Below, piece by piece: positions 2,045 to 64,000 of a stretch of 64,000 nucleotides of DNA. Position numbers and translations under genes: made by a program. The first letter of the stretch is position 1, and the number at the start of each line of letters is the position of its first letter. The stretch lies in IMG/VR virus record IMGVR_UViG_3300028886_001681, positions 96,259 through 160,258 of that record, one strand, 5' to 3'. The notes beneath the pieces were generated by a model. It searched no databases. It saw only the letters and a list, made by a program, of their open reading frames with translations, and was not told the origin of the DNA. This DNA comes from a virus (lineage: Duplodnaviria > Caudoviricetes).

Positions 2045-3385
2045 ATGACAGATAAGATAGTTAATAGAGCGTTAAAAGTCAGATTATATCCTTCTCAAGA
2101 GCAAAAAGAATTCTTAAATAAATCTTTAGGAACATCTCGTTTCTTTTATAATTATCTGTTAAATGAAAAAATTGAATTTTATAAGAATGAAATTGAACCA
2201 ATTAAAGAAGATGTCAAATTAAAATCAGAAAAATATAAAAGTTTTAAGGCGACCACCAAGAAACAATTCAAGGAAAAATTTGATTTTGCAAAGGAATGTT
2301 CCGATGACTGTCTGAATTCGACAGAAAGAAATCTACAATCCGCTTTCAACAATTTTTTCAAAAGTCTGAACAAATCGAGAAAAGGGAAGATGGGTTTTCC
2401 AAAATTCCGTTCAAAGAAAGAGCACAAGGATTCTTACACGGAATGTCATGTTAAAAAGAACGCTTTTGACTTCCATAATAGAAAAATAAATATTTCAAAA
2501 TGCACACCGATTTATTTCAAACATCGCGAAAAATTGCCAAAATGGTATAACAAGGAAACTTGTATATTAAAATCAATTACAATAAGCAAAAATTCATGTG
2601 GGGAATATTGGGTAAGTTTATTATTTGAACTTCCTAATTTTAATTCCAATCAAAAACCAATTGACGAAAATCAAGCGATTGGCTTGGATTGGTCTCCGTC
2701 TGAATTTTACATAGACTCCGAGTGTCACTCGGCGAAAGATTATGGCTACGAACCGCAAAAGCAAAAACATGCAAAACAACTTGCGAAGTTGCAGAGAAGG
2801 TTGGCAAAGAAAACCAAAGGTTCAGTAAATTATGAAAAAGCAAGAATAAAACTTGCTAAATTAGAGAAACATATTGCAGATTCTCGCAAGTGGTGGATTG
2901 AGAATGAATCTTTAAGACTTACTAAAAATTATTCCACAATCGGAATTGAGGATTTGAATCTTCAAGGAATTGCCAAATTCCTACGAAACGCAAAGAATGT
3001 CAATGATTGTGCTTACGGAATTTTTACAACTCGTCTGATTCAAAAAGGCGAAGAATTAGGAACTTCTGTGATAAAAGTTGACAGATATTATCCTTCATCT
3101 CAATTATGCCACGTTTGCGGTTATCAAAACCATAATTTGAAACTTTCAGATAGAGAATGGGTTTGTCCTTCTTGTGGTGAACACCACATAAGGGATTACA
3201 ACGCAAGCATCAATCTGAAAAACGAAGCGATTAGATTATCTGTACCCATGAGACGTGGGGAATTTAGGTCTGCGGAGGGCGTTGAAAATGTAAATTCGCT
3301 TGTTTTACAAGCGTTAAACATTGGAGCGTCCGTTGAAACAGAAAGAACTACTTGCGAAAGTGTTCAGAAAGCCTACAGTCTTTAG
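2045..3385 (+). CDS. tnpB: IS200/IS605-family TnpB RNA-guided nuclease (no adjacent tnpA)
   Basis: N-terminal RALKVRLYP HTH, RuvC motifs GLDW, IEDL and RDYNA, zinc finger CHVCG/CPSCG. Confidence 0.92.
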   Translation: MTDKIVNRALKVRLYPSQEQKEFLNKSLGTSRFFYNYLLNEKIEFYKNEIEPIKEDVKLKSEKYKSFKATTKKQFKEKFDFAKECSDDCLNSTERNLQSAFNNFFKSLNKSRKGKMGFPKFRSKKEHKDSYTECHVKKNAFDFHNRKINISKCTPIYFKHREKLPKWYNKETCILKSITISKNSCGEYWVSLLFELPNFNSNQKPIDENQAIGLDWSPSEFYIDSECHSAKDYGYEPQKQKHAKQLAKLQRRLAKKTKGSVNYEKARIKLAKLEKHIADSRKWWIENESLRLTKNYSTIGIEDLNLQGIAKFLRNAKNVNDCAYGIFTTRLIQKGEELGTSVIKVDRYYPSSQLCHVCGYQNHNLKLSDREWVCPSCGEHHIRDYNASINLKNEAIRLSVPMRRGEFRSAEGVENVNSLVLQALNIGASVETERTTCESVQKAYSL

Positions 3386-4404: not shown

Positions 4405-4665
4405 TTAATTATGTCCGTTAATCAACTGTTCGACTCGTTGGCGAGAGATGTTGTAAGCCTTTCCGATTTCTCGATAGGTCTTTCCCTCGCTCCGCATTTT
4501 GTTGATTTCAATTAAGCGCTTTTCGTCGCGCTCTTTCTTGGGTTTCAACCCTCTCATTCTCAAATGGCGGTAAACTGTGGAAACCGAAAGATTGAACTTC
4601 TTCATGATTTCTTCAACCACCAAATTGTCCTTGTTGCTTTCAAGATAATCGCTCAAATAATCCAT
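4405..4665 (-). CDS. Double helix-turn-helix DNA-binding protein
   Basis: LSVSTVYRHL and sigma-region-4-like TYREIGKAYNISRQRVEQ. Confidence 0.7.
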   Translation of the reverse strand: MDYLSDYLESNKDNLVVEEIMKKFNLSVSTVYRHLRMRGLKPKKERDEKRLIEINKMRSEGKTYREIGKAYNISRQRVEQLINGHN

Positions 4666-4700
4666 ATAAATCCTCCATGTTTTAGCGACTTTATTTTATC

Positions 4701-5582
4701 TCAACAGACTTCAAATTCCAAGTCCTTTTTCGTGTCAAAAATTCCTCGGACTTTGTGCTCCCTTGAGTCTGTCAACACAAATAAATTCTCTCCGTGACGA
4801 ATGTTGTAGTATCCGTCCGTCGAAAAATATCCATCCATTATCTCAGTGTGTCCCACAACTTGCTTGCTCCAATAAGGTTCGGAAAGCAAAGAGGGAGGTC
4901 TAATCCATAAAATTCCTTGTTGAACTTCGTCACCTGTCGGACTGCATAGACCATGCCAATCAAGCAACTCATCGAACTCATACGAAAAATTCTCGTCGCC
5001 GTTAAAATGGGTCAGTCCGTGCCAAACCTCGTTCAACAAATCGACCGAGAATTCTTTCTCGTCCCAAAGTTTTGTAGTGGAGTTTATTTTGGCGATGAAT
5101 TCGTCGTATTCCTCCCTAGAGGCGAATTCCTTTCCGTCCAACGCTTCTTTCGGATACTCATCCAACAATCTATGAAGACAAGGCTTTAAATACGCGACCA
5201 CCCAAGTCTTCGAGAAGCCTGCGTGGGAGAAAACCCAACCGTCATTCTCGAAAGCCAAGTCAATCAAGTCCAAGTTTGAGTTCAACAACCCTCGTATCTC
5301 TCCGACTCTCTTATGTTGGTGTCCGCTACAGTTGGCTCCCTCGCGAGTTCCACTAATGTATGAGAAGTCATGATTTCCCAAGAGCAACCTCACCTTGTCC
5401 TTATTCGCTCGTTTGAATTCGCATATTCCCTTAAAGTTCTCTCCTTGGCTCGGCCACTTGTTTTCCCAAGAATCGAAGTAGTCGCCCATGAAAACGACGA
5501 AATCGACTTCGCCTATTTTCTCCTTGGCGACAAGCCACTCGCGAGACCCATGAACATCGGGAACAATCAATATTTTAGACAA
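4701..5582 (-). CDS. Calcineurin-like metallophosphoesterase
   Basis: PDVHG, MGDYFD, LGNHD, SHAG, VGHT motifs; probable TTG start at 5582. Confidence 0.8.
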   Translation of the reverse strand: MSKILIVPDVHGSREWLVAKEKIGEVDFVVFMGDYFDSWENKWPSQGENFKGICEFKRANKDKVRLLLGNHDFSYISGTREGANCSGHQHKRVGEIRGLLNSNLDLIDLAFENDGWVFSHAGFSKTWVVAYLKPCLHRLLDEYPKEALDGKEFASREEYDEFIAKINSTTKLWDEKEFSVDLLNEVWHGLTHFNGDENFSYEFDELLDWHGLCSPTGDEVQQGILWIRPPSLLSEPYWSKQVVGHTEIMDGYFSTDGYYNIRHGENLFVLTDSREHKVRGIFDTKKDLEFEVC

Positions 5583-7903: not shown

Positions 7904-8387
7904 CGTTCAAATTCTTTTGGGCGGAGATTATTCTTGAAAGTTTCTCAATCGCTTGTCTTTGGGAAGGAGTCAAATCCACGCTTTCTTTTTCCTCGTCTTT
8001 TGTAGCGGGTGTGAGAATTGTGTTCGGTGTGGCTTGAGTCGGAGCAAACAATTTAAACAACGAGTCTATGTTCTTCGACTTTTCGGAAGAAATCGTTGCG
8101 TAGAATGCCCTCAACTCGTCATTGCTCAAATCATGGGCAAGAACTCTTTTGGCAATCTCAGCCTCAAGCAATCCTTTCAATGTGTTCTGATGCTCCAAGT
8201 TGCGCAACTGCGAAGAAACGAACAAGGACACATCGTTCCTTAAATCGTCTTGAGTCATAACTCGCTTGGCTCCGTTTTCGTCCAAATCATAAAGGCTTTT
8301 CAAGAGTTGTTTGCTTTCATCGACCAAAGAGTTCGCGTCTTGAATTGAAAGTTCCGTGCTTTCGCTTCCCTCATATTCATCAGACAT
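7893..8387 (-). CDS. Hypothetical helical protein
   Basis: GGAGG SD; driven from divergent TAACTAT palindrome. Confidence 0.6.
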   Translation of the reverse strand: MSDEYEGSESTELSIQDANSLVDESKQLLKSLYDLDENGAKRVMTQDDLRNDVSLFVSSQLRNLEHQNTLKGLLEAEIAKRVLAHDLSNDELRAFYATISSEKSKNIDSLFKLFAPTQATPNTILTPATKDEEKESVDLTPSQRQAIEKLSRIISAQKNLNDDE

Positions 8388-8429: not shown

Positions 8430-8842
8430 TGAAGGAAGAAAACTCTCAAAACGAACTTCTTAATTCTGTGGAATTCCTCTTTGCCAAGCCTTGTTTTCAA
8501 GGACACTACATGTATGCTATGGACGATTTGGATTCCATGAGCGTCATAGACAAAGATTCTTTAAAAAATCTTTTAGTTCAATTGAAATGCTATGATTTCG
8601 TTAAAACGAATTATTTGCTAGACAGAAACCTTCCATTGTTTTTCAACGCCAAAGAAAAAAAAATTGAAGAATTTCAAGACATCAATGAACTTGACGAAAA
8701 GACGCTTAAAAAAATGTTGCATGATGAATTGAATTTAAATTCGAAACTGCAAGAAAAATCAATTTATGAAAAATTCTTTGGCAAGGACAGTGAATTCTAT
8801 AAAAATAAATTCGAGGAGATGTTGAATTATGAGCGTAATTAA
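8429..8842 (+). CDS. Hypothetical protein
   Basis: 137-aa ORF after TAACTAT. Confidence 0.6.
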   Translation: MKEENSQNELLNSVEFLFAKPCFQGHYMYAMDDLDSMSVIDKDSLKNLLVQLKCYDFVKTNYLLDRNLPLFFNAKEKKIEEFQDINELDEKTLKKMLHDELNLNSKLQEKSIYEKFFGKDSEFYKNKFEEMLNYERN

Positions 8843-9329
8843 CCAATACAAGGCGGTTTATCCGATTGAGAACACGAGATTTGAAAATGAAGATGTTTAC
8901 ATCAATGCCACATCGATGGAAAAGGCGGTGAACTTGATTTCAACCGAAAGGGGAGCGGAGCCTATCATAATTTCGAAAGTTCGAGATAATGTTCTCACAG
9001 AACCTACAGAAGAAACCATGGTGGAGTTTGAGATAAAGTCATATTACATTGATGAGGAAAGCGGAGAAGAAATCGAAGTTCCAAATTGCGTTGCATACCC
9101 AACCTCCATTCCGAATTGCGCGAGGGGAAGTACCCTTTATATGCAGACTCCAAATTATTCGTTCGTCGAGGAAATCGAAGGCGAGGAAGTCACCGTGAAT
9201 TACGCGTTTGAAAAATGGATTTATGGAGAAATTGAATACGCAAACAATCCGCAGATTTTCACAATTCCGTTGGATGAAGAAATAAGTTCGGTTAGCATAA
9301 AGGCCATTTATACTAGAACTACAAACTAA
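8829..9329 (+). CDS. Acidic beta-rich protein, possibly virion-associated
   Basis: GAGGAG SD; C-terminal FEKW...KAIY repeat-domain-like pattern. Confidence 0.55.
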   Translation: MSVINQYKAVYPIENTRFENEDVYINATSMEKAVNLISTERGAEPIIISKVRDNVLTEPTEETMVEFEIKSYYIDEESGEEIEVPNCVAYPTSIPNCARGSTLYMQTPNYSFVEEIEGEEVTVNYAFEKWIYGEIEYANNPQIFTIPLDEEISSVSIKAIYTRTTN

Positions 9330-10095
9330 AAATGTCCTTTCGGTATTCTTCGATTCTCTTTTTTGCAATTTCGAAATAATTTTCGTCTTTCTCTATTCCA
9401 ATGAATTTTCGTTTCATTATGAGGGAGGCGACGCATGTGGAACCGCTTCCAAGACAGTTGTCCAAAACGACATCACCTTCCTTAGTGTAAAAGCCAATCA
9501 ACTTTTTCAACAATTCTATCGGCTTTTGGGTCGGATGGAATTTTTCGGAATCCCTCTTGCATTTCAATATGTTGCTCGGAACATTGGAATGCGACACATA
9601 TTCCTTATTGGAGTTCAACTTGTTGTTCAAACCGTCATACCCGCTATTCTTTCTAAATTTGGAGTTGGGATTGTTCCTTTTCATCTTTCCTTCTTCCCTT
9701 TCGATGAAAAATTTTATAGGATTCTTGCTCAAACTTCCGACAGTTGCCTTCGAGAACACGCAGATGTCCTCCGTTTTCTTCAAAGGGGCGTATGCGGAAT
9801 TCAAGAATCCGTTGGCCGACTCCTTCTCCCATATCCAATTATATCGCCATTCCTCCAAATTTGAGCAAATCAAAGTCGAGGTGAACGGTTGGGTCGCAAA
9901 CAAGACGACCACTCCATCATCCTTCACGATTCTATGATAATGTTCCCACAATTTATTATAAGGAATGATTGAATCCCATTTGTGGGCAGTGGTTCCAAAA
10001 GGCAAGTCGCACAAAACCAAGTCAACTGAACCGCTTTCAATTCCGTTCATCACTTCAAGGCAATCACCCTTGAATAATTCGAAGGGTTCGCTCAT
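9319..10095 (-). CDS. DNA methyltransferase (beta-class N6A/N4C)
   Basis: DLPF motif IV, HPTQKP, DNCLGSGST motif I. Confidence 0.9.
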   Translation of the reverse strand: MSEPFELFKGDCLEVMNGIESGSVDLVLCDLPFGTTAHKWDSIIPYNKLWEHYHRIVKDDGVVVLFATQPFTSTLICSNLEEWRYNWIWEKESANGFLNSAYAPLKKTEDICVFSKATVGSLSKNPIKFFIEREEGKMKRNNPNSKFRKNSGYDGLNNKLNSNKEYVSHSNVPSNILKCKRDSEKFHPTQKPIELLKKLIGFYTKEGDVVLDNCLGSGSTCVASLIMKRKFIGIEKDENYFEIAKKRIEEYRKDIFSL

Positions 10096-11540
10096 TGTCC
10101 GAACATCTCCTCATAAACGCTCTCAGAGTATTCATTATTTTTTACATAATTCAAACTTTCTTCAGTAGCGTGAATATCTTTCATTTGAATAGGTTTTGCT
10201 AACCCGAAATCCTTGATAGAACGGAATCTACTTAAAGCAACATACAAACCATTATCTGGAACCCAATTACCATAGTCTATATATGCTCTTGCAAGTGTAA
10301 GTCCCTGTGTCTTATGTATAGTAGACGCACTACAAACTTTAATCGGTATGTTATCATATGAACCTACAATCTTACTCTTTACAACCGTATGTCCATTTTC
10401 TTCTACGAGTTCATATTCATAATTATTTATAACCGCCCTTTCAACTTTAACTTCTCTATCACCTAAATCGACAATAGCGTAATCATCGTTACAAGAAATC
10501 AGTGTTCCCATACTACCGTTATAATAATCACGAATTCCTTCTCCATTAATCGAAGCGTTTCTCGTTATCATTATCGGGCAACCAATCTTCACCCAAATCT
10601 TTTCAGCGTAAAATCCGTTCTTAAATTCAGCGGTTTCCCTAAATGTTCCTGTAATTTTTGCAGTTAAACAAATGAACTTTCCATCGATAGCGTCCAAAGC
10701 AATCTGATTATATTTCTGTACATCTTTATTAGTAGACACAATTCTCAAGAAAGATTCATTCTGCATAATATAATCTTCTTCACTCATGACACGCTGATTA
10801 AGCCAGTCCAAATCATCTTGAGTCTGTTCACATACACGAATTCTGTTCAAAACATCCTTAAATCTCTCATCGGTATCGTTCTGACGATATATTTTTGTAA
10901 GCAAGAATGTGGCAAATCCCATATCTCTAAATGCAAATGAAGAAAAGAATTCTACATTTCCATTGTAGTTTATCATATAATAATCTTTTACTTGTGGGTC
11001 GTCCATTTTTACAACACATTGAAGTTGCAAGCAGTCTCCGAACAAAATAACTCTTGTTGGTTTTCCTCTTCGACATACACGAATAATGGACATTATATAA
11101 TCGAACATATCACAACTGACCATAGAAACTTCATCAAAAATAAAGCAATCAATGTTTCCAATCAAATCTTTTTGTGAATAAGAAGAGTTTGTAAATGCAC
11201 CGAAAATGTCAGTTGGTTTTAATTTAAATAAACTGTGAATTGTAGTAGCACCAAGATTACTTCCGTTATTCAACAAAGCACTTGCGACACCTGTAGAAGA
11301 AGCAATTGCAACATTCATTCTCTTGTTTTCAACATCGTCAGAAAACATACAATTAATGATTTTAAGTAATGTACTTTTACCACTTCCTGCATTTCCTTGT
11401 ATGCTTACTTTGGCATTATCATTTTCTCTTATATATTTCAGAATTTCCATGTATTTGTCTGAAAATTCAATACCGTCAAAATGTTCCTTCAATTCTTCGA
11501 TAGATTTCATTTTGTTCTTCCATTTATAAAAAATCCGCAA
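10092..11540 (-). CDS. PIF1/RecD-like SF1B helicase
   Basis: GNAGSGKS, TIHSLF, DEVSM, GDCLQL, YRQ, TIHKTQGLT, YVALSR. Confidence 0.9.
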   Translation of the reverse strand: MRIFYKWKNKMKSIEELKEHFDGIEFSDKYMEILKYIRENDNAKVSIQGNAGSGKSTLLKIINCMFSDDVENKRMNVAIASSTGVASALLNNGSNLGATTIHSLFKLKPTDIFGAFTNSSYSQKDLIGNIDCFIFDEVSMVSCDMFDYIMSIIRVCRRGKPTRVILFGDCLQLQCVVKMDDPQVKDYYMINYNGNVEFFSSFAFRDMGFATFLLTKIYRQNDTDERFKDVLNRIRVCEQTQDDLDWLNQRVMSEEDYIMQNESFLRIVSTNKDVQKYNQIALDAIDGKFICLTAKITGTFRETAEFKNGFYAEKIWVKIGCPIMITRNASINGEGIRDYYNGSMGTLISCNDDYAIVDLGDREVKVERAVINNYEYELVEENGHTVVKSKIVGSYDNIPIKVCSASTIHKTQGLTLARAYIDYGNWVPDNGLYVALSRFRSIKDFGLAKPIQMKDIHATEESLNYVKNNEYSESVYEEMFGQ

Positions 11541-56514: not shown

Positions 56515-56935
56515 ATCGCCCTCCTAAAATAGTTGGCTCTTAACTTAAATAATAACACATTTCTCGCATTTTGTCAAGTAAAATTATCACACCTCTAAAT
56601 ACTTTTGGATGTCCAAAATCTCCATTGTGGGCTTTCCTTCGTATTTCATGTCCCAATGAAACCAAGCGGTCACCAAGCAACCGCACTTGAACTTCATTTC
56701 GTCCTCATCGAACTTGTCGTAGGCAATTTGTCTGTCAAAAATATAAACTGTCTTGAGATGATTCCACAATTCATTCCTATATCTATTGTACGCACCGAAA
56801 TAATTTGTACGACCAATTACAATTCATGATTTTCAATTTTTTTCATAATTATATATTGTATTTCTACTTAAATTTTTTTACAAAAATTCGACAAGAAAAT
56901 GCCACCCTTTATGGTGGTTATATGAATTGCCGTAA

Positions 56936-57346
56936 TCATCCTTGATTTTCAATGCAATGTTTCAAAGTGGTCTCCGACACACAACCAATTGAAGTGCAAA
57001 AATAACCTCTTGTCCATAAATTATGTTTACCGCTCCAATAAAAGTTTATTAAATAATCGTTGTGATTTTTCCAAGCATAAAATGTAGAAATTTGTTTCAA
57101 ATTATGAATTATATCAGAAATTTGACAAGTCGGAGTAGCATTAATCATTAAATGAATATGGTCGGCTTTAGTTAAATCAATTTCCATAGTTTCTATTTTC
57201 CATTTATTTTGTTTGGATTCGGCAATTTTCATATATGATTTTATATCTTCCGAGATATCTTTCAGACATTTCTTTTTATATTTTGTTGAAAAAATCATAT
57301 GATACTTGATTTTATATTTTTCATGATTAAAATGTTCGTAATCCAT
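56936..57346 (-). CDS. tnpA: IS200-family Y1 transposase TnpA, catalytic Tyr apparently replaced by Cys
   Basis: YHMIFSTKY, DHIH (HUH), LWTRGYF, and KHCIENQ where YIxxQ is expected. Confidence 0.85.
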   Translation of the reverse strand: MDYEHFNHEKYKIKYHMIFSTKYKKKCLKDISEDIKSYMKIAESKQNKWKIETMEIDLTKADHIHLMINATPTCQISDIIHNLKQISTFYAWKNHNDYLINFYWSGKHNLWTRGYFCTSIGCVSETTLKHCIENQG

Positions 57347-57426
57347 AAATACTCCTATGTAAAATTTAACTATTTTATATAGTTAAATTATTAACTATTT
57401 TACATAGAGGATTAACTATTTATTGT

Positions 57427-58722
57427 ATGACAGAATCGGAAAGATTACTGAAAAACAACAAGATTTCTCAAACAAAACATGAAACTATTTCACGACATGA
57501 AAAGATGAATTGTCGTACATATACTTTTAAAATACAAGAAAATTCATTAAACAATCAACAAAAAGAATTTCTTAAAATGATTTTCATTGAACAAAAATGG
57601 TTGAAAAATTATATTCTAAATTGGTGCGAGCAAGACAAAGAAAATAAATTGACCAAATTTGACACCAAAATTACAAAAATAACACATAAAGATAAAGTTA
57701 TGAATGATGTTGAGGTAGAATTAAAATATCTATCCGCGCAATCAAAACAATGCCTTGTATCAAGAATGTATTCAAACATCAAAACTTTGCATACCTTAAA
57801 ATCTAAAGGATTACAAAAATGTGGAAAATTAAAATATTCAAAAGAAGAAAAAATAATTGATTTGAAACAATACGGATGTTCGCATAAAATTATTTCAAAA
57901 AATAGATTCAAAATAAGCGGATGTAAAAAACCATTCAAAGTAAATGGTATGAATCAATTTATAGAGATTCCAAACATAGAGTACGCCAACGCTAGATTGT
58001 TAAACCGAGCAGACGGATGTTATGTTCAATTAGTCTGTTACATTCCTAAAGAAAATAAAATTAAAAACGAAAAAATAAATAAAACCATAGGTATTGATTT
58101 TGGTTGTTCTACATCTTTCACAACAAGTGAAGGTGAGAAAATTAATGTGTCAATTCAAGAAAGCGAGCGATTGAAGCGTTTGCAAAGGAAATTCGCTAGA
58201 CAAACAAAAGGCTCAAAGAATTGGCACAAAACATTAGAATTAATCAAAAAAGAATACCAAAAACAAACCAATCGAAAAGATGATATTTCCAACAAAATTA
58301 TTCACAAATTTTCACAATATAAAACGATTGTGATTCAAGACGAGCAATTAAAAAATTGGTCAAAAAATCATCATGGGAAGGCAATTCAACATTCAATTTT
58401 GGGAAGAGTGAAATCAAAATTAAAGACCAAAGAAAATGTCGTGATTTTGAGCAAAACTGTTCCCACCACAAAACTATGCACGAATTGTGGAGTTTATCAC
58501 GATGAATTGAAAGTTTGGGATAGAACTTTCAAATGTGAATGTGGTGTTGAAATGGACAGAGATGTTCACGCTTCAAAAAACATGGTTTGGTTTTATGAAA
58601 ATAATGTAGGTGTGGAACGCACCAATATTAAGCGTGTGGAGATGGAAGCACTAGTTCTTGGGGTTATTCGTAACTCAAAGAACCAACTTGTGTCGAAGAA
58701 GCACGAAGCCTACTCCCTTTAG
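57427..58722 (+). CDS. tnpB: TnpB RNA-guided nuclease
   Basis: GIDFG, IVIQDEQL, PTTKLCTNCG, CECG, DRDVHA. Confidence 0.88.
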   Translation: MTESERLLKNNKISQTKHETISRHEKMNCRTYTFKIQENSLNNQQKEFLKMIFIEQKWLKNYILNWCEQDKENKLTKFDTKITKITHKDKVMNDVEVELKYLSAQSKQCLVSRMYSNIKTLHTLKSKGLQKCGKLKYSKEEKIIDLKQYGCSHKIISKNRFKISGCKKPFKVNGMNQFIEIPNIEYANARLLNRADGCYVQLVCYIPKENKIKNEKINKTIGIDFGCSTSFTTSEGEKINVSIQESERLKRLQRKFARQTKGSKNWHKTLELIKKEYQKQTNRKDDISNKIIHKFSQYKTIVIQDEQLKNWSKNHHGKAIQHSILGRVKSKLKTKENVVILSKTVPTTKLCTNCGVYHDELKVWDRTFKCECGVEMDRDVHASKNMVWFYENNVGVERTNIKRVEMEALVLGVIRNSKNQLVSKKHEAYSL

Positions 58723-58734
58723 GGAGTAGGTAGT

Positions 58735-59202
58735 TCACATCTCCAATCTTTCTTGCAAGTTTCTTCCCAACGCCTCCGCGCATTGGTAGAAGTCAAATGT
58801 CTGCGGTTGGCAAAATTTCAAATCTTCCTCCAAATCAAGAATCCCTTTTCTTCCAACCTTAACCTCCGCAATTTCCTTATCCAACTTGGAGCAGAACCAT
58901 CGAGTATTGTCATAGGCTTTCTGCAAGGATTCGACCGCGTTGTTGATTTTGTTCTCATACGAGGCTTTCATCTCGTTAAACTTTTTCTCCGCTTGGAGCA
59001 TGTCCTCGTTGTTCAACAAGTTGATTTCCGAAAGAAGGCTTTTTCCAACCTTGGGACAACAGTCCAACACCAACTCTCTAACCGCGTCAATTTCATTGTT
59101 GAATGCAATCAAAGGAAACACGCCTTTAATTTCCGTAGTTTCCCTTCGTTTCTTGTCCTTTATTTTTTCTTCGCACCAAGCGATTATTTCCTCATAACTC
59201 AT
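58735..59202 (-). CDS. Hypothetical protein
   Basis: GGAGG SD; stop codon lies in the IS right end. Confidence 0.55.
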   Translation of the reverse strand: MSYEEIIAWCEEKIKDKKRRETTEIKGVFPLIAFNNEIDAVRELVLDCCPKVGKSLLSEINLLNNEDMLQAEKKFNEMKASYENKINNAVESLQKAYDNTRWFCSKLDKEIAEVKVGRKGILDLEEDLKFCQPQTFDFYQCAEALGRNLQERLEM

Positions 59203-59440
59203 ATGTTTTCCTCCATAAATCGTTTCTCTTCATTTTTCGCTCGTCGCCACGCAAGCGACATCTCCATGCTCTTTCTTCAAAGACTCAATTTCCTTGATTA
59301 TGGTGGGAATCCTTCTCCTAACGAATGTTCCGAGAAATCCGTCATCAAAGCGGACACCGCAAGAACAGACAACTTTTCCCTCGGCCTTTTCAAGCCATTC
59401 ATCATATGAATATTTGGCGACTCTTCCCATTCAACAACTC

Positions 59441-60358
59441 CTAGAAATCGAACAATTCCTTTTTAGTCTGACTGTCCGCGACCTTTACGCAAGCGCAACC
59501 TCTTTTCTTGAATTCCTCTAAAAAGGACTTCCTCTTATCGTCATAAAAGTAGACGATTTCCGCCCCTTCCATTCCATCGAATGTTCCGTCGAGAATGTAG
59601 CGAACATGCAGAAAGTTCTTGTAGTCGAACGGATAGGATTGAATCCCCAAATCGTGGCAACCAAAACACATGTCGTCCTCGTTTCTAGTTCCTCCGCATA
59701 TCGCCTCGATGTAGAATTTATCCTTGTCGATGTAGGGCTTCAACGCGTCAATAATTCCCTTTCTGTCCAACTCGGACTCCACGACCAATATTCTGTGCGG
59801 TTTCTCGATGCAGTCCTTTCCCAAGTACCTAGCGGAAATCAATGAGCGGTTTATCCATTTGGATATGTTCTTTCCGTTGCTTCCGTCGCGAGAGTCGTAA
59901 ATCTTGAACGGATATGACACCGAGTAAGGGTCTACTCCTTTCGGCAAATTCGTCTTCAAACACTCGCAACCCTTGGTGTATTTCTTCATCTCCTCTTTCA
60001 TGACTTTCCATGTCGGACGACTCTTGTAGTAGTTCTTCAACTTGAAGTGGGCGGTCTTACAGTAATATTTTTGTCCGTCGTTCAACATGACTTCTCCGCA
60101 GAAATCGTTGAGGTGGACGCCTATTCCCATTCCTTGGTAGTCAGGCAACACGACAAGCCTATGACCCATGTAAAAATCACGAATGTCTCCGTTCGGCAAG
60201 AGCAACATCGCCCTAAAACCGACCAATATATCGCCCCAATAGCATATGAACACTCGGCAAGGAGCCAAATTCGCCTCTTGGGTCAAATAATGATATTGCC
60301 TAAATATTTTCCAAAGGCCTTCCTTCTTTGAGTTGTCCGCGACCTCGTAGACGGACAA
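59441..60358 (-). CDS. GNAT-family acetyltransferase-like domain (possibly Mom-like DNA modification)
   Basis: WKIFRQYHYL and RLVVLPDYQGMGIG acetyl-CoA-binding motif. Confidence 0.75.
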   Translation of the reverse strand: MSVYEVADNSKKEGLWKIFRQYHYLTQEANLAPCRVFICYWGDILVGFRAMLLLPNGDIRDFYMGHRLVVLPDYQGMGIGVHLNDFCGEVMLNDGQKYYCKTAHFKLKNYYKSRPTWKVMKEEMKKYTKGCECLKTNLPKGVDPYSVSYPFKIYDSRDGSNGKNISKWINRSLISARYLGKDCIEKPHRILVVESELDRKGIIDALKPYIDKDKFYIEAICGGTRNEDDMCFGCHDLGIQSYPFDYKNFLHVRYILDGTFDGMEGAEIVYFYDDKRKSFLEEFKKRGCACVKVADSQTKKELFDF

Positions 60359-61017
60359 CTCAATTCTTTTTTTAGTTCAACTCCTCGGCAATCATAAACC
60401 TTCTCGTCGTCCAAGTCCACCACAATATCAGGTTCCATATAGTCTATATAATCCTTGTGGCAAGAGCAGAAAACGACCTTCTTCAAATTGTGCTTGACGA
60501 TATACTTCTTCACTCCGATTACTGTGGAAATCGCCACATTTCTGTCTACGGTTGATGTGAACTCATCGAAACACATCTCCGACTGAATGTTCAAGGCCAA
60601 GTCCGCCCTAAAGCCCTCGCCCACAGAGAGCACATTTCTAGGACGGCACCAAGTAGGGACGGTGGACAATCCGACCGAAGCCAATCTGTCCATGCAATCC
60701 TCCTTGTCAGTGAAGTCGAAGTTGGAAATCACGGACTTGGAGCAATCATATTTCTTGATTTTCTTCTCGAAGAAAGGAAATTCCTTGAGAAGTTGGGATT
60801 TTCCCGCTCCGCTTCGACCGCAAATCACGCAAGTGCGATAGTCAATCTCGTTCAAAACCTTCGGCAGTCTATAAGGATAGAATTTACTCTCTCCCACGAA
60901 TTCATAGTCAAAATAAGATTGTGCCAACTGAGTGTATTCATCGCACGGAATCTTTGAAACCAAAGGCTCGTCCTTGCGTTGCAGAGAGCACAAAACTTTG
61001 CAATCTTGATAGTTCAT
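60283..61017 (-). CDS. ABC-type ATPase domain, probably joined to the GNAT domain by a -1 frameshift
   Basis: GRSGAGKS, LSVGE signature, FDEFTSTVD, CSCH. Confidence 0.8.
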   Translation of the reverse strand: MNYQDCKVLCSLQRKDEPLVSKIPCDEYTQLAQSYFDYEFVGESKFYPYRLPKVLNEIDYRTCVICGRSGAGKSQLLKEFPFFEKKIKKYDCSKSVISNFDFTDKEDCMDRLASVGLSTVPTWCRPRNVLSVGEGFRADLALNIQSEMCFDEFTSTVDRNVAISTVIGVKKYIVKHNLKKVVFCSCHKDYIDYMEPDIVVDLDDEKVYDCRGVELKKELSCPSTRSRTTQRRKAFGKYLGNIII

Positions 61018-61131
61018 TCAATTTTCTCCTTGAATGAAAGGAGTTTATCACATTGATTTGGTTTTTGTCAAGGAAAAATTGCAAAAAAAAGACGGCCACC
61101 CAAGACCGCCTTTCCGCGAATTCGAGAAAAG

Positions 61132-61353
61132 TTATTCCTCGTCTTTAACTTCTTCCGAAGTTTCGGTCTGTTCCTCAACCTTTTCTTCGATTACAGTTTC
61201 CTTCGTCTCAACCTTTTCTTCCTTTTTAGGCTCAACAATCGGAGTTTCCGCAACTTCCTCTTTTTCCACGATGGGAAGGGTGCTTGAGAAACTTACAACC
61301 TCTCCGTCCAAAGAAACTTTGTTGGTGTTCTTCATGAAATCATTAACCATTTT
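61132..61353 (-). CDS. Small Glu-rich protein
   Basis: AGGAGG SD before MVNDF; terminator hairpin downstream. Confidence 0.5.
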   Translation of the reverse strand, partial: KMVNDFMKNTNKVSLDGEVVSFSSTLPIVEKEEVAETPIVEPKKEEKVETKETVIEEKVEEQTETSEEVKDEE

Positions 61354-61370
61354 CCATTCCTCCTTAAAAA

Positions 61371-61709
61371 TTAATCTATATATCCAAAAGCCTTCATTCG
61401 ACTCTCGACTTCCGCGGAATTCGAGCACATCACGACGAAATCGCTCAAGCCTCCGTCCGAAAAATAAACTCCTTCGTCTCCAAAATATACTTCCTCGAAC
61501 GATTCCGCAGAATACAAGACGAACTCGTTGTCTCCGTCGTTGAACGAAATGCTCTCCCCCTCAAACCCTTCGACCGCTTCCACTGTCGGCGACCATATGT
61601 TGGTTATGTTGCTCGATTCGTCGACATAGGAAACTCCGTCAACCTCGATTCCGTCGAATAAACTCAAAAACTCGCAATTTGTCATGTGTTTCGTGATTCT
61701 TTCGCTCAT
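61371..61709 (-). CDS. Acidic hypothetical protein
   Basis: Likely start MSERI. Confidence 0.5.
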   Translation of the reverse strand: MSERITKHMTNCEFLSLFDGIEVDGVSYVDESSNITNIWSPTVEAVEGFEGESISFNDGDNEFVLYSAESFEEVYFGDEGVYFSDGGLSDFVVMCSNSAEVESRMKAFGYID

Positions 61710-61723
61710 TTTGAATTCCCCAA

Positions 61724-62200
61724 TCAATCGATGAATTTCTTTCCGCCTTCCCAATAGTCGGAGGAAACCATCACTCCCACGGTGAACCTTCCTTCGAAAT
61801 TGAGGGAAACTTGCTTGGCAACTTTGGCGCACTTGGAGTAACTTTCGAATTCATTGATTTGTCCGCACATCTCGTCGCCGACTTGAACGCCTTCGTCCAA
61901 GTCCATCACATAAAACATCGCTCCGACGGAAGCGGATTCCTTGATTTCCTCGCCTTTGAACAACTTTGTTTCCACTTCATCTATAAATTTGTATAGAGTT
62001 TCCCTCATCTCGTCGTCCAACGGCAAGGTCTCCACTATGTCGTCCGCCACAGACTCGATTTCGTCGAAGGGGTATTGGGGCTTCGTTCCTTTCTTCAAGT
62101 TCTTCGCCACCTCCTCAAGAATTTGGCAGTCCACTATCACAAAGTCTTCGTCCGTGTGGCTATAGGCGAAATCAATCACTTCCTTGATTCCCATAATCAA
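61724..62200 (-). CDS. Acidic two-domain protein with EEIKES linker
   Basis: Co-oriented, GAGG SD. Confidence 0.55.
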   Translation of the reverse strand: MIMGIKEVIDFAYSHTDEDFVIVDCQILEEVAKNLKKGTKPQYPFDEIESVADDIVETLPLDDEMRETLYKFIDEVETKLFKGEEIKESASVGAMFYVMDLDEGVQVGDEMCGQINEFESYSKCAKVAKQVSLNFEGRFTVGVMVSSDYWEGGKKFID

Positions 62201-62476
62201 CTACCTCGCGAGATAAAAGCCTAGAACATCGGCTCTGAACGAATATGTGGCCTTGAGTTGCAAAATGTTGTCGTTAGCCAAACAAACTTCAATCAAGCCG
62301 TCGTAAGCCCAAACATGTTGAACCTCCAACTTGGCCACAGAAACAATGTCCTCTATGAGGTTTTCCAAATCATTGATGTATTTTATCTTTTTAAAATCCG
62401 ACTCCAAATCCGCCAAATTCTCGTCGTAACATTTGAAATCTTCAAATTTAATGTCTTGATTGTAAAGTTTCATCAC
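62201..62476 (-). CDS. Small acidic protein
   Basis: AGGAGG SD. Confidence 0.55.
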   Translation of the reverse strand: MMKLYNQDIKFEDFKCYDENLADLESDFKKIKYINDLENLIEDIVSVAKLEVQHVWAYDGLIEVCLANDNILQLKATYSFRADVLGFYLAR

Positions 62477-62495
62477 GCTCTATCCCTCCTTAAAA

Positions 62496-62864
62496 TCAAC
62501 TAGCCTTCTTTGTCCAAGTCACATTGATTGTGATGTCGCCCTTGATTGGGTTCTCGCAGTCTTCCGTGACAATTGACTCATTGTATCTATAAGTGGGGTA
62601 GTAGTCCGTCACGCTTAAATCCTTCTCGTGAATCGCGTTGCCGATTGTCTCGAACGGTTGGGCGGTGTATGTGGCGCTAGTTCCTCCGTTGTCCGAATTG
62701 GTGAAAGTCACCGTGAATGTGGTCGGAGTGGGGGTTGTGTTGGGAACTCCGCCACACATGAGGGTTTGGGCGTCGTTGGCGAAGTTTCCTCTGAAAGTGG
62801 TGTATGAATATCCGTGTCCGTTCATTCCTTCCTTGTTGTCGTTCAAATTGAAATTGTTGGGCAT
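62496..62864 (-). CDS. Small Thr-rich beta protein, probably virion-associated
   Basis: PNTTPTPTT linker then Ig/ubiquitin-like beta domain; TAACTAT at 62900-62906. Confidence 0.5.
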   Translation of the reverse strand: MPNNFNLNDNKEGMNGHGYSYTTFRGNFANDAQTLMCGGVPNTTPTPTTFTVTFTNSDNGGTSATYTAQPFETIGNAIHEKDLSVTDYYPTYRYNESIVTEDCENPIKGDITINVTWTKKAS

Positions 62865-62927
62865 AATTTTGTCTCTCCTAATGAATAAATTTTGATAAAA
62901 TAGTTAAAAATTCATTGCTCAATCTAG

Positions 62928-63257
62928 TGGAACGGCTTTAATGAGTTTAAATTTGCCAACGACCAAAACGAATTAAGCGAGTGGTATGACTTCTACACCT
63001 ACAACAACGATTCTTGGGTTATGACTTCCGCTCCTTATGATGGATTTATAACCGCTATATCTAGAGGAAGTAATGGAGCAAGCATTAACATTTTTGTAAA
63101 TGATATAATTATAGCCGCCAATTCAAACGCAGATTATGGAATAAATGGTCAAGGTGAAGTTGCGTTTAGAAAGGGTGATAAGTTAGAGATTACTAGTTCT
63201 TTTAGGGATAAAGGTTACATCTGTTTCTACGAAAAGCGCGACTACTCCAACCGATAA
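62928..63257 (+). other. Start-less tail-fibre-tip-like cassette 1
   Basis: Open frame begins right after TAG: WNGFNEFKFANDQNELSEW...APYDGF...RKGD...YEKRDYSNR*. Confidence 0.65.
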
Positions 63258-63266
63258 TCATTCAAG

Positions 63267-63617
63267 TGGAACGGTCATTATGAGTTATTGAAAATCACCA
63301 CCGATGAACAATGGACAGGTCGCTATTGGAACGATGGAAAGAAAATTTATACAAGAATGATATCCAACACAAAATCCTTTATGTATCATTCTTTTGTCGA
63401 ATTATTTTCATATTCAGATTATAATATAGATACATTAATCTCAGTTCAAGAAACTCCTTTTTCTAATAATATAGATAGTTATTTCTTTAAATGTAACGCT
63501 TATGGATTTGATGTATCATTTGATAGGAAAGTTAGAGCGTGGAACACTTACACAGGTGGTTCTACAGTAACTAAATCATACATATTAATTATTGAATACA
63601 CCAAAACATCTTCCTAA
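63267..63617 (+). other. Start-less tail-fibre-tip-like cassette 2 (different domain type)
   Basis: WNGHYELLKITTDEQWTGRYWNDGKKIY...IIEYTKTSS*. Confidence 0.65.
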
Positions 63618-63622
63618 TTTAG

Positions 63623-63952
63623 CGGAACGGATGGAATGAGTTCGTTAATAATTGCGAGTTAAGCGAGTGGGAAGAGATTTCACTGAGCACTAACTCAAGC
63701 AATCCAACCGTTATGACTTATGACGGATTCTTAATTGTAAGAAGTCCGAGTGGCTCAGGTGGCACTATATATGTTAATGGGTCTCCTATTGCTAATGCAA
63801 CACATAGCGGGTACGGCGGAACGACATATGAAGGTTCAAGCGCAACTATACCTGTTAAGAAAAACGACGAAATATACAAGATTGTTGGAATGGGGGATAC
63901 AAATCCATCCTTTGTGGCCTACTACAAGAAACGCGACTACTCAAACAGATAA
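63623..63952 (+). other. Start-less tail-fibre-tip-like cassette 3 (paralog of cassette 1)
   Basis: After TAG: RNGWNEFVNNCELSEW...YDGF...KKND...YKKRDYSNR*. Confidence 0.65.
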
Positions 63953-63962
63953 CTCACTCTAA

Positions 63963-64000
63963 CGGAACGGCTACAATGATTTTGTTAATAATTGCAAGTT
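63963..64000 (+). other. Start of cassette 4 (truncated by window edge)
   Basis: After TAA: RNGYNDFVNNCK. Confidence 0.55.

Follow-up and report, generated by a model that had tools for sequence, protein, structure and literature searches.

DNA invertases of the Hin and Gin type invert the DNA between their sites and do not delete it. The sites on which these enzymes act (hix, gix and cix) are 26 bp long and consist of two inverted 12-bp half-sites on either side of a 2-bp core (12-2-12), the core being AA in hix. The Min system has six sites. In Min, which is carried by the phage-plasmid p15B, a serine invertase acts at mix sites and brings about multiple inversions of tail-fibre parts (PMC6109161). 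The Rin shufflon of Bifidobacterium prophages has five cassettes and relies on a tyrosine recombinase that acts at an asymmetric 11-bp site (PMC6109161), and the tail-fibre shufflon of a BV01-like phage comprises three cassettes with a 10-bp motif (PMC13596623). Many prophage tail-fibre inversions have been catalogued in a survey that proceeded without a viral genome scan (PMC9881135).

Here we describe a locus at the end of a viral contig that we read, with a probability of roughly 80%, as the array of silent cassettes in a shufflon, a multiple-inversion system that switches the receptor-binding tip of a tail fibre. The kind of system, tail-fibre inversion, is already known; this member of it is new and unusually large. 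The locus and its relatives resemble Min in several respects: the relatives have a serine invertase and several sites in both orientations, the site lies within coding sequence in the relatives, and alternative fibre C-termini are joined there to one constant N-terminal part. By contrast with the six sites of Min, the related contig L030 holds 18 sites in 10.3 kb. The segment is a single tip of about 110 amino acids with no accompanying assembly gene, and the site sequence is different. The sites stand mostly in tandem direct rows, forming two arrays split by unrelated genes, and the host is a phage of about 200 kb known only from metagenomes.

The invertases of the relatives belong to the family (PF00239, PHROG 125) of Gin (Mu G), Cin (P1 C), Pin (e14) and Hin (hix, Salmonella). 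The site has the 12-2-12 layout of hix, gix and cix and the AA core of hix, the cleavage position being presumed here. However, the Gin, Cin, Pin and Hin systems are two-state switches with one invertible segment, and their half-site sequences differ from those described below. As in Rin, a constant RBP gene is accompanied, in the relatives, by a row of start-less C-terminal cassettes with short repeat heads, the Rin recombinase lying at the far side; unlike Rin, the system has a serine invertase (in relatives), a 26-bp dyad and many more cassettes. The R64/IncI shufflon (Rci, sfx, pilV) and the BV01-like system likewise exchange adhesin or fibre C-termini by inverting multiple segments. Rci of R64, however, is a tyrosine recombinase and its target is a pilus adhesin, whereas here the site is a dyad and the enzymes in the relatives are of the serine type.

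A row of start-less cassettes at the end of a phage contig

The DNA that we analysed, a 64-kb window, is the final part of a linear viral contig of 160,258 bp (G000), with base 64000 of the window being the last of the contig. Contig completeness was 77% (CheckV), and genes for Hsp20-, GroEL- and GroES-like proteins were read by eye at the other contig end. The array spans positions 62928-64000 on the plus strand and comprises three complete units and one cut unit, with start-to-start spacings of 339, 356 and 340 nt and gaps of 9, 5 and 10 nt between a stop codon and the next head. All four heads have the form YGGAACGG-N5-ATGA(G/T)TT, with the frame opening at (W/R)NG, and the codons preceding the heads of C1 to C4 are TAG, AAG, TAG and TAA, respectively.

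The first complete unit, C1 (62928-63257, 109 amino acids), belongs to a family marked by ELSEW..KRDYSNR, and C2 (63267-63617, 116 amino acids) to a separate family marked by W.DGK.IY..EYTKT. C3 (63623-63952, 109 amino acids) is a paralog of C1 (37% identity) and is 81% identical to the C-terminus of a tail-collar fibre encoded on the related contig L001. C4 (63963-64000) is cut by the contig end after its first 12 codons, RNGYNDFVNNCK, and its head is that of a complete 103-amino-acid cassette at position 7957 of L030. Each cassette frame is free of stop codons, against 3-16 stops in the other five frames, and three open frames of 109, 116 and 109 codons would arise by chance with a probability of about 6e-12 at the local base composition.

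These results confirm the description of a start-less cassette array given in the initial annotation, which had been made from the sequence alone. It had placed four consecutive same-strand units about 340 bp apart, each within about 10 nt of the preceding stop, had given them the shared head read as (W/R)NG with an in-frame stop directly before it in three of four cases, and had taken C1 and C3 for diverged paralogs and C2 for a different domain. All of this agreed with our measurements.

C1 is preceded by 63 nt of non-coding DNA and then by a divergent gene for a 122-amino-acid protein (62496-62864, minus strand); the part of the non-coding flank between this gene and site 1, described below, is 62865-62918. 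Neither the cassettes nor the 122-amino-acid neighbour matched a Pfam or PHROGs family. Searches with the cassettes returned zero matches among the INPHARED phages and nothing in PDB sequences, scans of IMG/VR with single cassettes recovered 0 and 1 locus, and the DNA pattern of the tandem array matched 0 further IMG/VR contigs. Elsewhere in the window, an IS200/IS605-type pair lies at 56936-58722 and consists of a Y1 transposase (PF01797, 136 amino acids, minus strand) and a TnpB-like protein (PF01385 and PF07282, 431 amino acids, plus strand); it is missing at the corresponding place of the 218-kb relative G001. A 305-amino-acid protein (59441-60358, minus strand) matches GNAT acetyltransferases weakly, with scores that lie near or under the Pfam cut-offs, and is kept in G001.

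Each cassette is headed by half of a 26-bp dyad

The conserved head had been proposed to be a recombination site, which is supported by its occurrence in frame in the fibre genes of L030 and L001, but the element is larger than the head: it is a 26-bp dyad. The motif noted earlier corresponds to the right half-site plus core, and the left half-site lies in the spacer after the preceding stop. The consensus, TCAATCTA(G/T)nSG-AA-CGGCTAyAAyGA, rests on 32 true sites, the original tally having also contained five chance GAACGG matches. Its layout is 12-2-12, with two 12-bp imperfect inverted half-sites around a central AA, and of the 12 left-half positions, 9-10 agree with the reverse-complemented right half. 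In silent copies the left half-site reads ..TCTAG or ..TCTAA, and in fibre genes it reads TAT (..S-I-Y-A/N-G.., a slash between residues marking the junction here and below). It is this TAG or TAA that places a stop before most heads. AAC always has a G in front of it, and the two bases ahead of that G vary, a pattern that fits an exchange inside G-AA-CGG.

We scored the contig with a weight matrix made from 28 sites on other contigs only, none of them from the window. The window sites scored 26.5-36.1 bits, and the next best position on either strand of the 160-kb contig scored 13.5. The AA at 62931-62932 is the presumed core of site 1, TCAATCTAGTGG-AA-CGGCTTTAATGA (62919-62944, 34.9 bits). 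In site 2 (63258-63283, 26.5 bits), the spacer after the C1 stop serves as the left half. Site 3 lies at 63614-63639 (29.0 bits) and site 4 at 63954-63979 (36.1 bits). All four are on the plus strand and are direct repeats of one another, and the matrix found no fifth site on either strand of the 160-kb contig. Since nothing beyond the four window sites scored above 13.5 bits, the contig contains no partner site.

The cassettes resemble fibre C-termini in database proteins

On the strength of sequence comparison, the cassettes are C-terminal tail-fibre tips. C1-like tips are in frame with a constant fibre domain in the database proteins P0011 (..SSSTYSIYA/NGWNDFVNNCELSEWENFYAYNNNSW..) and P0033 (377 amino acids, ..YIIYS/DGFNEIEFANNQNELSDW..). 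The junction ..YSIYA/NG(W/Y)NDFVNNCELS.. is common to P0011 and P0065 (424 amino acids), the latter being encoded on a small siphovirus-like contig that shows no sign of a switch. Together with the in-frame tips on the fibres of L001 and L030, these proteins substantiate a resemblance to tail-fibre C-terminal domains that the initial annotation had noted.

A profile of the C1/C3 family matched 307 cluster representatives. Among the 150 matches listed, about half were stand-alone ORFs of about 110 amino acids or less; in most matched proteins well over 110 amino acids (up to 1096), the tip domain was at the C-terminus. The tip profile had no match in 185,579 species genomes. Structure prediction, which had been suggested as a check, gave weak matches only: the C3 model (pLDDT 65) matched C1q/TNF and CBM jelly-roll folds (E >= 0.004), and the best match of the C2 model (pLDDT 61) was the gp53 fibre of phage AP22 (E 0.13). 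At pLDDT 61-65 these low-confidence predictions are suggestive only, and we left them out of the evidence.

Related contigs carry the fibre gene and the invertase

The initial annotation had seen no recombinase and no expression locus in the window, and this extends to the full contig, where we found no match to the serine recombinase family PF00239, no match to the tyrosine recombinase family PF00589 and no homolog of the constant fibre domain. It had also pointed to the sequence beyond position 64000 for a fibre gene with the motif in frame and for a recombinase. The contig ends there, and the in-frame site, the fibre gene and the recombinase were found in related contigs instead.

The most complete of these is L030, a 10.3-kb contig from metagenome Ga0256407 whose 18 sites belong to 17 cassettes and the tip on the expressed gene. 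Cassettes lie on the plus strand at 119, 450, 823, 3224, 7957, 8278, 8601, 8944 and 9275 and on the minus strand at 1718, 2047, 2397, 4068, 4450, 9928 and 10249; 11 sites are oriented on plus and seven on minus. The fibre gene (2478-3218, 246 amino acids) has a site in frame at 2904 (..YSIYA/NG..), its constant part ending ..GNPLVLSSTTYSIYA and being followed in frame by site and tip, and a DNA invertase (PF00239 / PHROG-125) is encoded at 4543-5163. Array 1 surrounds the fibre gene and the invertase, and array 2 lies past two unrelated genes. One of these spacer genes has an 84% identical counterpart in G001, which places L030 in the same phage group. Three L030 cassettes are relatives of C2, and so is the alternative tip that lies inverted at the collar fibre of L001.

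In the 1.9-kb contig L016, an invertase gene (430-1116) adjoins two tandem cassettes, the junction of which is nearly that between C3 and C4 of the window. The 61-kb IMG/VR contig L001 encodes a serine invertase (8664-9347) between two invertible fibre tips. A 48-nt inverted-repeat pair in this contig contains ..TCAATCTATGCGAACGGCTATAACGA.. (read as ..SIYANGYND..), a homolog of the window head; the in-frame copy lies at 7933-7980 (ANGYND), and the repeat bounds an invertible fibre tip beside the invertase. The second L001 fibre matches PF07484 (Collar) and PHROG 523 ('tail collar fiber protein'); its tip, the one that is 81% identical to C3, is followed by an inverted C2-like alternative. Sites in inverted orientation also occur in L017 and L019. 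At six more invertase loci, a fibre ending ..SSxDYTIYA(D/N)G lies just upstream of a related invertase, the fibre extending up to about 2,490 amino acids when taken as a stop-to-stop frame.

L001 has a second, unrelated inverted repeat of 53 nt (9920-9972 / 10665-10717), which is 98% complementary and has an AACC-TC-GGTA centre. This repeat bounds both tips of the collar fibre, C3-like and C2-like, and two site types therefore serve the same tip families in different phages.

A model of inversion at the central AA

Taking the window together with its relatives, we propose that the movable segment would run from a right half-site through an open C-terminal fibre domain (about 105-115 codons) and its stop to the left half of the following site. 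A serine DNA invertase of the Hin/Gin/Cin/Min kind would pair the site of a cassette with an opposite site inside the fibre gene, whose constant part in the relatives ends ..GNPxVLSSxxYSIYA before the site-encoded NG. Strands would be exchanged at the central AA of G-AA-CGG and the intervening DNA inverted; the selected tip would thereby become the in-frame C-terminus of the fibre, and the former tip would fall silent. Silent copies would be untranslatable because they have no start and carry TAG or TAA where the fibre gene reads TAT. Directly ordered sites, such as the four in the window, would be stable because enzymes of this family invert without deleting. The fibre gene served by the window cassettes would have to lie on the minus strand, to the right of where the contig stops, or in some other portion of the 23% of the genome that is missing.

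We infer that multiple inversion of the Min/Gin/Cin type is active in this particular phage, along with the exact crossover position, the inversion-only directionality and a location of this phage's fibre gene and invertase in genome sequence outside the assembly. The initial annotation had already viewed the cassettes as an archive of fibre tips fused to one expressed gene by site-specific recombination. This part of its proposal is borne out in the relatives by fused fibres, an invertase and sites in both orientations, and recombinases do lie near arrays in L030, L016 and L001. The Rci-type tyrosine enzyme of R64 that it had named among its models, together with Gin of Mu and Cin of P1, did not stand, the enzymes being serine invertases of the Gin/Cin/Min kind.

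Flanks and cassettes are reassorted at the site

For each window site we found a counterpart elsewhere that matches on one side and is unrelated on the other. Matching left sides extend over 21-40 nt at 90-100% identity, and the opposite sides are unrelated at 30-43%. The last 21 nt before the GAACGG of site 1 are identical to the sequence beside an inverted site at the L030 end, where a different cassette follows. The left side of site 2 is 93% identical over 40 nt to L030 8280, whereas the right side (37%) is unrelated. Site 3 matches L030 2045 (minus strand) at 90% on its left, with an unrelated right side; its right side matches L016 1198 and L020 189 at 87-88%, with unrelated left sides. 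The right side of site 4 is identical over 30 nt to L030 7959 (100%) and the left unrelated, and its left side is 93% identical to L030 8946 and the right unrelated. The C4 head stands behind the C3 tail in the window and behind a non-coding flank in L030, and the sequence ..KRDYSNR-stop with its left half-site stands ahead of four different cassettes (window, L016 and L030).

The breakpoints of identity fall between -1 and +14 relative to GAACGG, most of them at GAACGG itself. A crossover inside GGAACGG had been guessed from the TGG/CGG variation at the heads, and the break of homology between contigs at GAACGG agrees with that guess. Comparing cassette order among relatives, likewise proposed earlier, revealed left flanks and right cassettes in new combinations from contig to contig. 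As judged from these alignments, segments made up of a right half, a cassette and the next left half are reassorted in a shufflon-like manner, the comparison being between genomes and not within one population. In two of the between-contig comparisons, identity continued 8 and 14 nt past GAACGG; exchange at the AA core alone would not produce this, which suggests that homologous exchange has also taken place.

Such homologous exchange could in principle be the whole mechanism: homologous recombination or gene conversion would draw on the array as an archive (cf. Neisseria pilS, Borrelia vls), no invertase would be involved in this phage, and the heads (NGxNDFVNNCELSEW) and tails (YYKKRDYSNR) would serve as blocks of homology. 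The contig indeed has no invertase, the cassettes are mosaic, with heads and tails common to otherwise different cassettes, and the 8-14 nt of identity beyond the core in the two comparisons would be natural under gene conversion. We nevertheless consider this reading quite unlikely: the conserved element is a 26-bp 12-2-12 dyad whose left half lies outside the coding part, most breakpoints coincide with GAACGG itself, and relatives with the same site have a serine invertase by their cassettes and both site orientations around the fibre gene.

The relative G001 and the ends of assemblies

Scans with the neighbouring genes recovered a single relative, G001, which is 218 kb long and 92% complete. 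It carries four cassettes at the same genomic place, after a homolog of the 122-amino-acid gene (L006 10875-11829, equal to G001 216.9-217.9 kb). These belong to a different tip family (xNGLIEQWG...GY) and have a diverged site, GAACGGTTTGATTGAACAA. Three are on the plus strand and one is on the minus strand, the inverted cassette having no fusion to any fibre gene; beyond the cluster, the contig continues for 170 nt of AT-rich DNA and ends. We recognised no partner fibre with a site in G001, and its invertase lies 137 kb from the cassette cluster. A site-like sequence at G001 78243 (minus strand) within a 952-amino-acid fibre matched at 15 of 19 positions; we set it aside as being at chance level (about 0.5 expected) and having no G before AAC.

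That fibre, a repeat-rich tail fibre, is encoded together with a divergent serine invertase at G001 76195-80863 (L004 6513-10172), and G000 has only about 1 kb (74417-75384) at the place where G001 carries the two genes. The fibre and invertase module seems to be mobile within the phage group. If G001 is read as a circle, the array and adjacent gene block (window ~56590-62885 versus G001 212.8-216.9 kb) are oppositely oriented to the rest of the genome; the block has no 26-bp site at its other end, and the IS200/IS605 element lies at the G000 junction.

Both assemblies end in their arrays, G000 37 nt into C4 and G001 170 nt past its cluster, and the cassette contigs L016-L020 and L032 are only 0.5-1.9 kb long. 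Such breaks are as expected of coexisting inversion isomers, and the array explains the assembly breaks at this place in these phages.

The absence of a partner fibre with a site from both the 77%-complete contig and the 92%-complete G001, and of the fibre and invertase block from G000 at the place syntenic with G001, could also mean that the array is an orphan relic. The fibre gene and invertase would then have been lost or moved, leaving cassettes that are inert or recombine rarely with co-infecting relatives. This is very unlikely in our judgement: the three complete cassettes are intact, at the chance level of about 6e-12 given above, the four sites score as high as those of the complete L030 system, and the contig stops within the array, as assemblers do on coexisting isomers.

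Start codons and the independent-gene reading

No Shine-Dalgarno (SD) sequence and no in-frame start had been seen at the motif, whose own ATG had been called out of frame. We obtained the same result: the motif-internal ATG is in another frame and meets a stop after 3-11 codons, and the nearest in-frame ATG, GTG or TTG lies 7 to 31 codons into the cassettes. Promoter, terminator and SD signals around the array did not exceed chance level, and no Rfam families were found there.

Independent small genes read from internal or unusual starts (ATG 63021, TTG 63288, ATG 63713), with the head as a regulatory or translation signal, would account for the in-frame ATG that C1 and C3 share at a homologous place (..V-M-T..) and for the fact that gene callers call such ORFs. 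Against this highly improbable reading stand coding-type conservation 11-31 codons upstream of the candidate starts, the same residues internal to long fibres in L001, P0011, P0033 and P0065, SD, promoter and terminator signals not above chance, and cassettes in some relatives with no start codon anywhere near the head. We also rejected a frameshift or ribosome hop (the motif ATG opens 3-11 codons, three in C2, and slippery patterns are absent), read-through or an alternative genetic code (the frame continues across the TAA from C1 to C2 but changes from C2 to C3 and again from C3 to C4) and a splice-acceptor-like YAG before the head (the TAG/TAA is accounted for by the left half-site).

Implications for the phage group

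What sets this tail-fibre inversion system apart is the 18 sites in 10 kb of L030, the long direct arrays, the splitting of arrays by ordinary genes and the setting in a lineage of phages of about 200 kb, as well as one-domain cassettes, several unrelated cassette families and one fixed junction. Tentatively, this lineage might hold the largest inversion-driven receptor-binding repertoire yet, with each genome encoding at least 18 tips of no fewer than five unrelated folds in several tandem arrays between which ordinary genes lie, a proposition that we regard as somewhat unlikely.

On that reading, tip choice would invert multi-kilobase blocks, the invertase gene included, and the arrays of G000 and G001 may use an invertase more than 100 kb away or one supplied in trans. 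Long rows of direct repeats would also need a very strict inversion-only filter. Because assemblies break at such arrays, genome catalogues will under-report systems of this kind. The locus offers a natural library of small modular receptor-binding domains at one junction (..YSIYA/NG..), and the 26-bp site with its small invertase is a candidate multi-site inversion tool.

Tail-fibre tips set which bacteria a phage infects. With a dozen or more ready tips, each available through a single inversion, these phages would have wider bet-hedging than the two-state switches of Mu and P1 or the six-site system of p15B.
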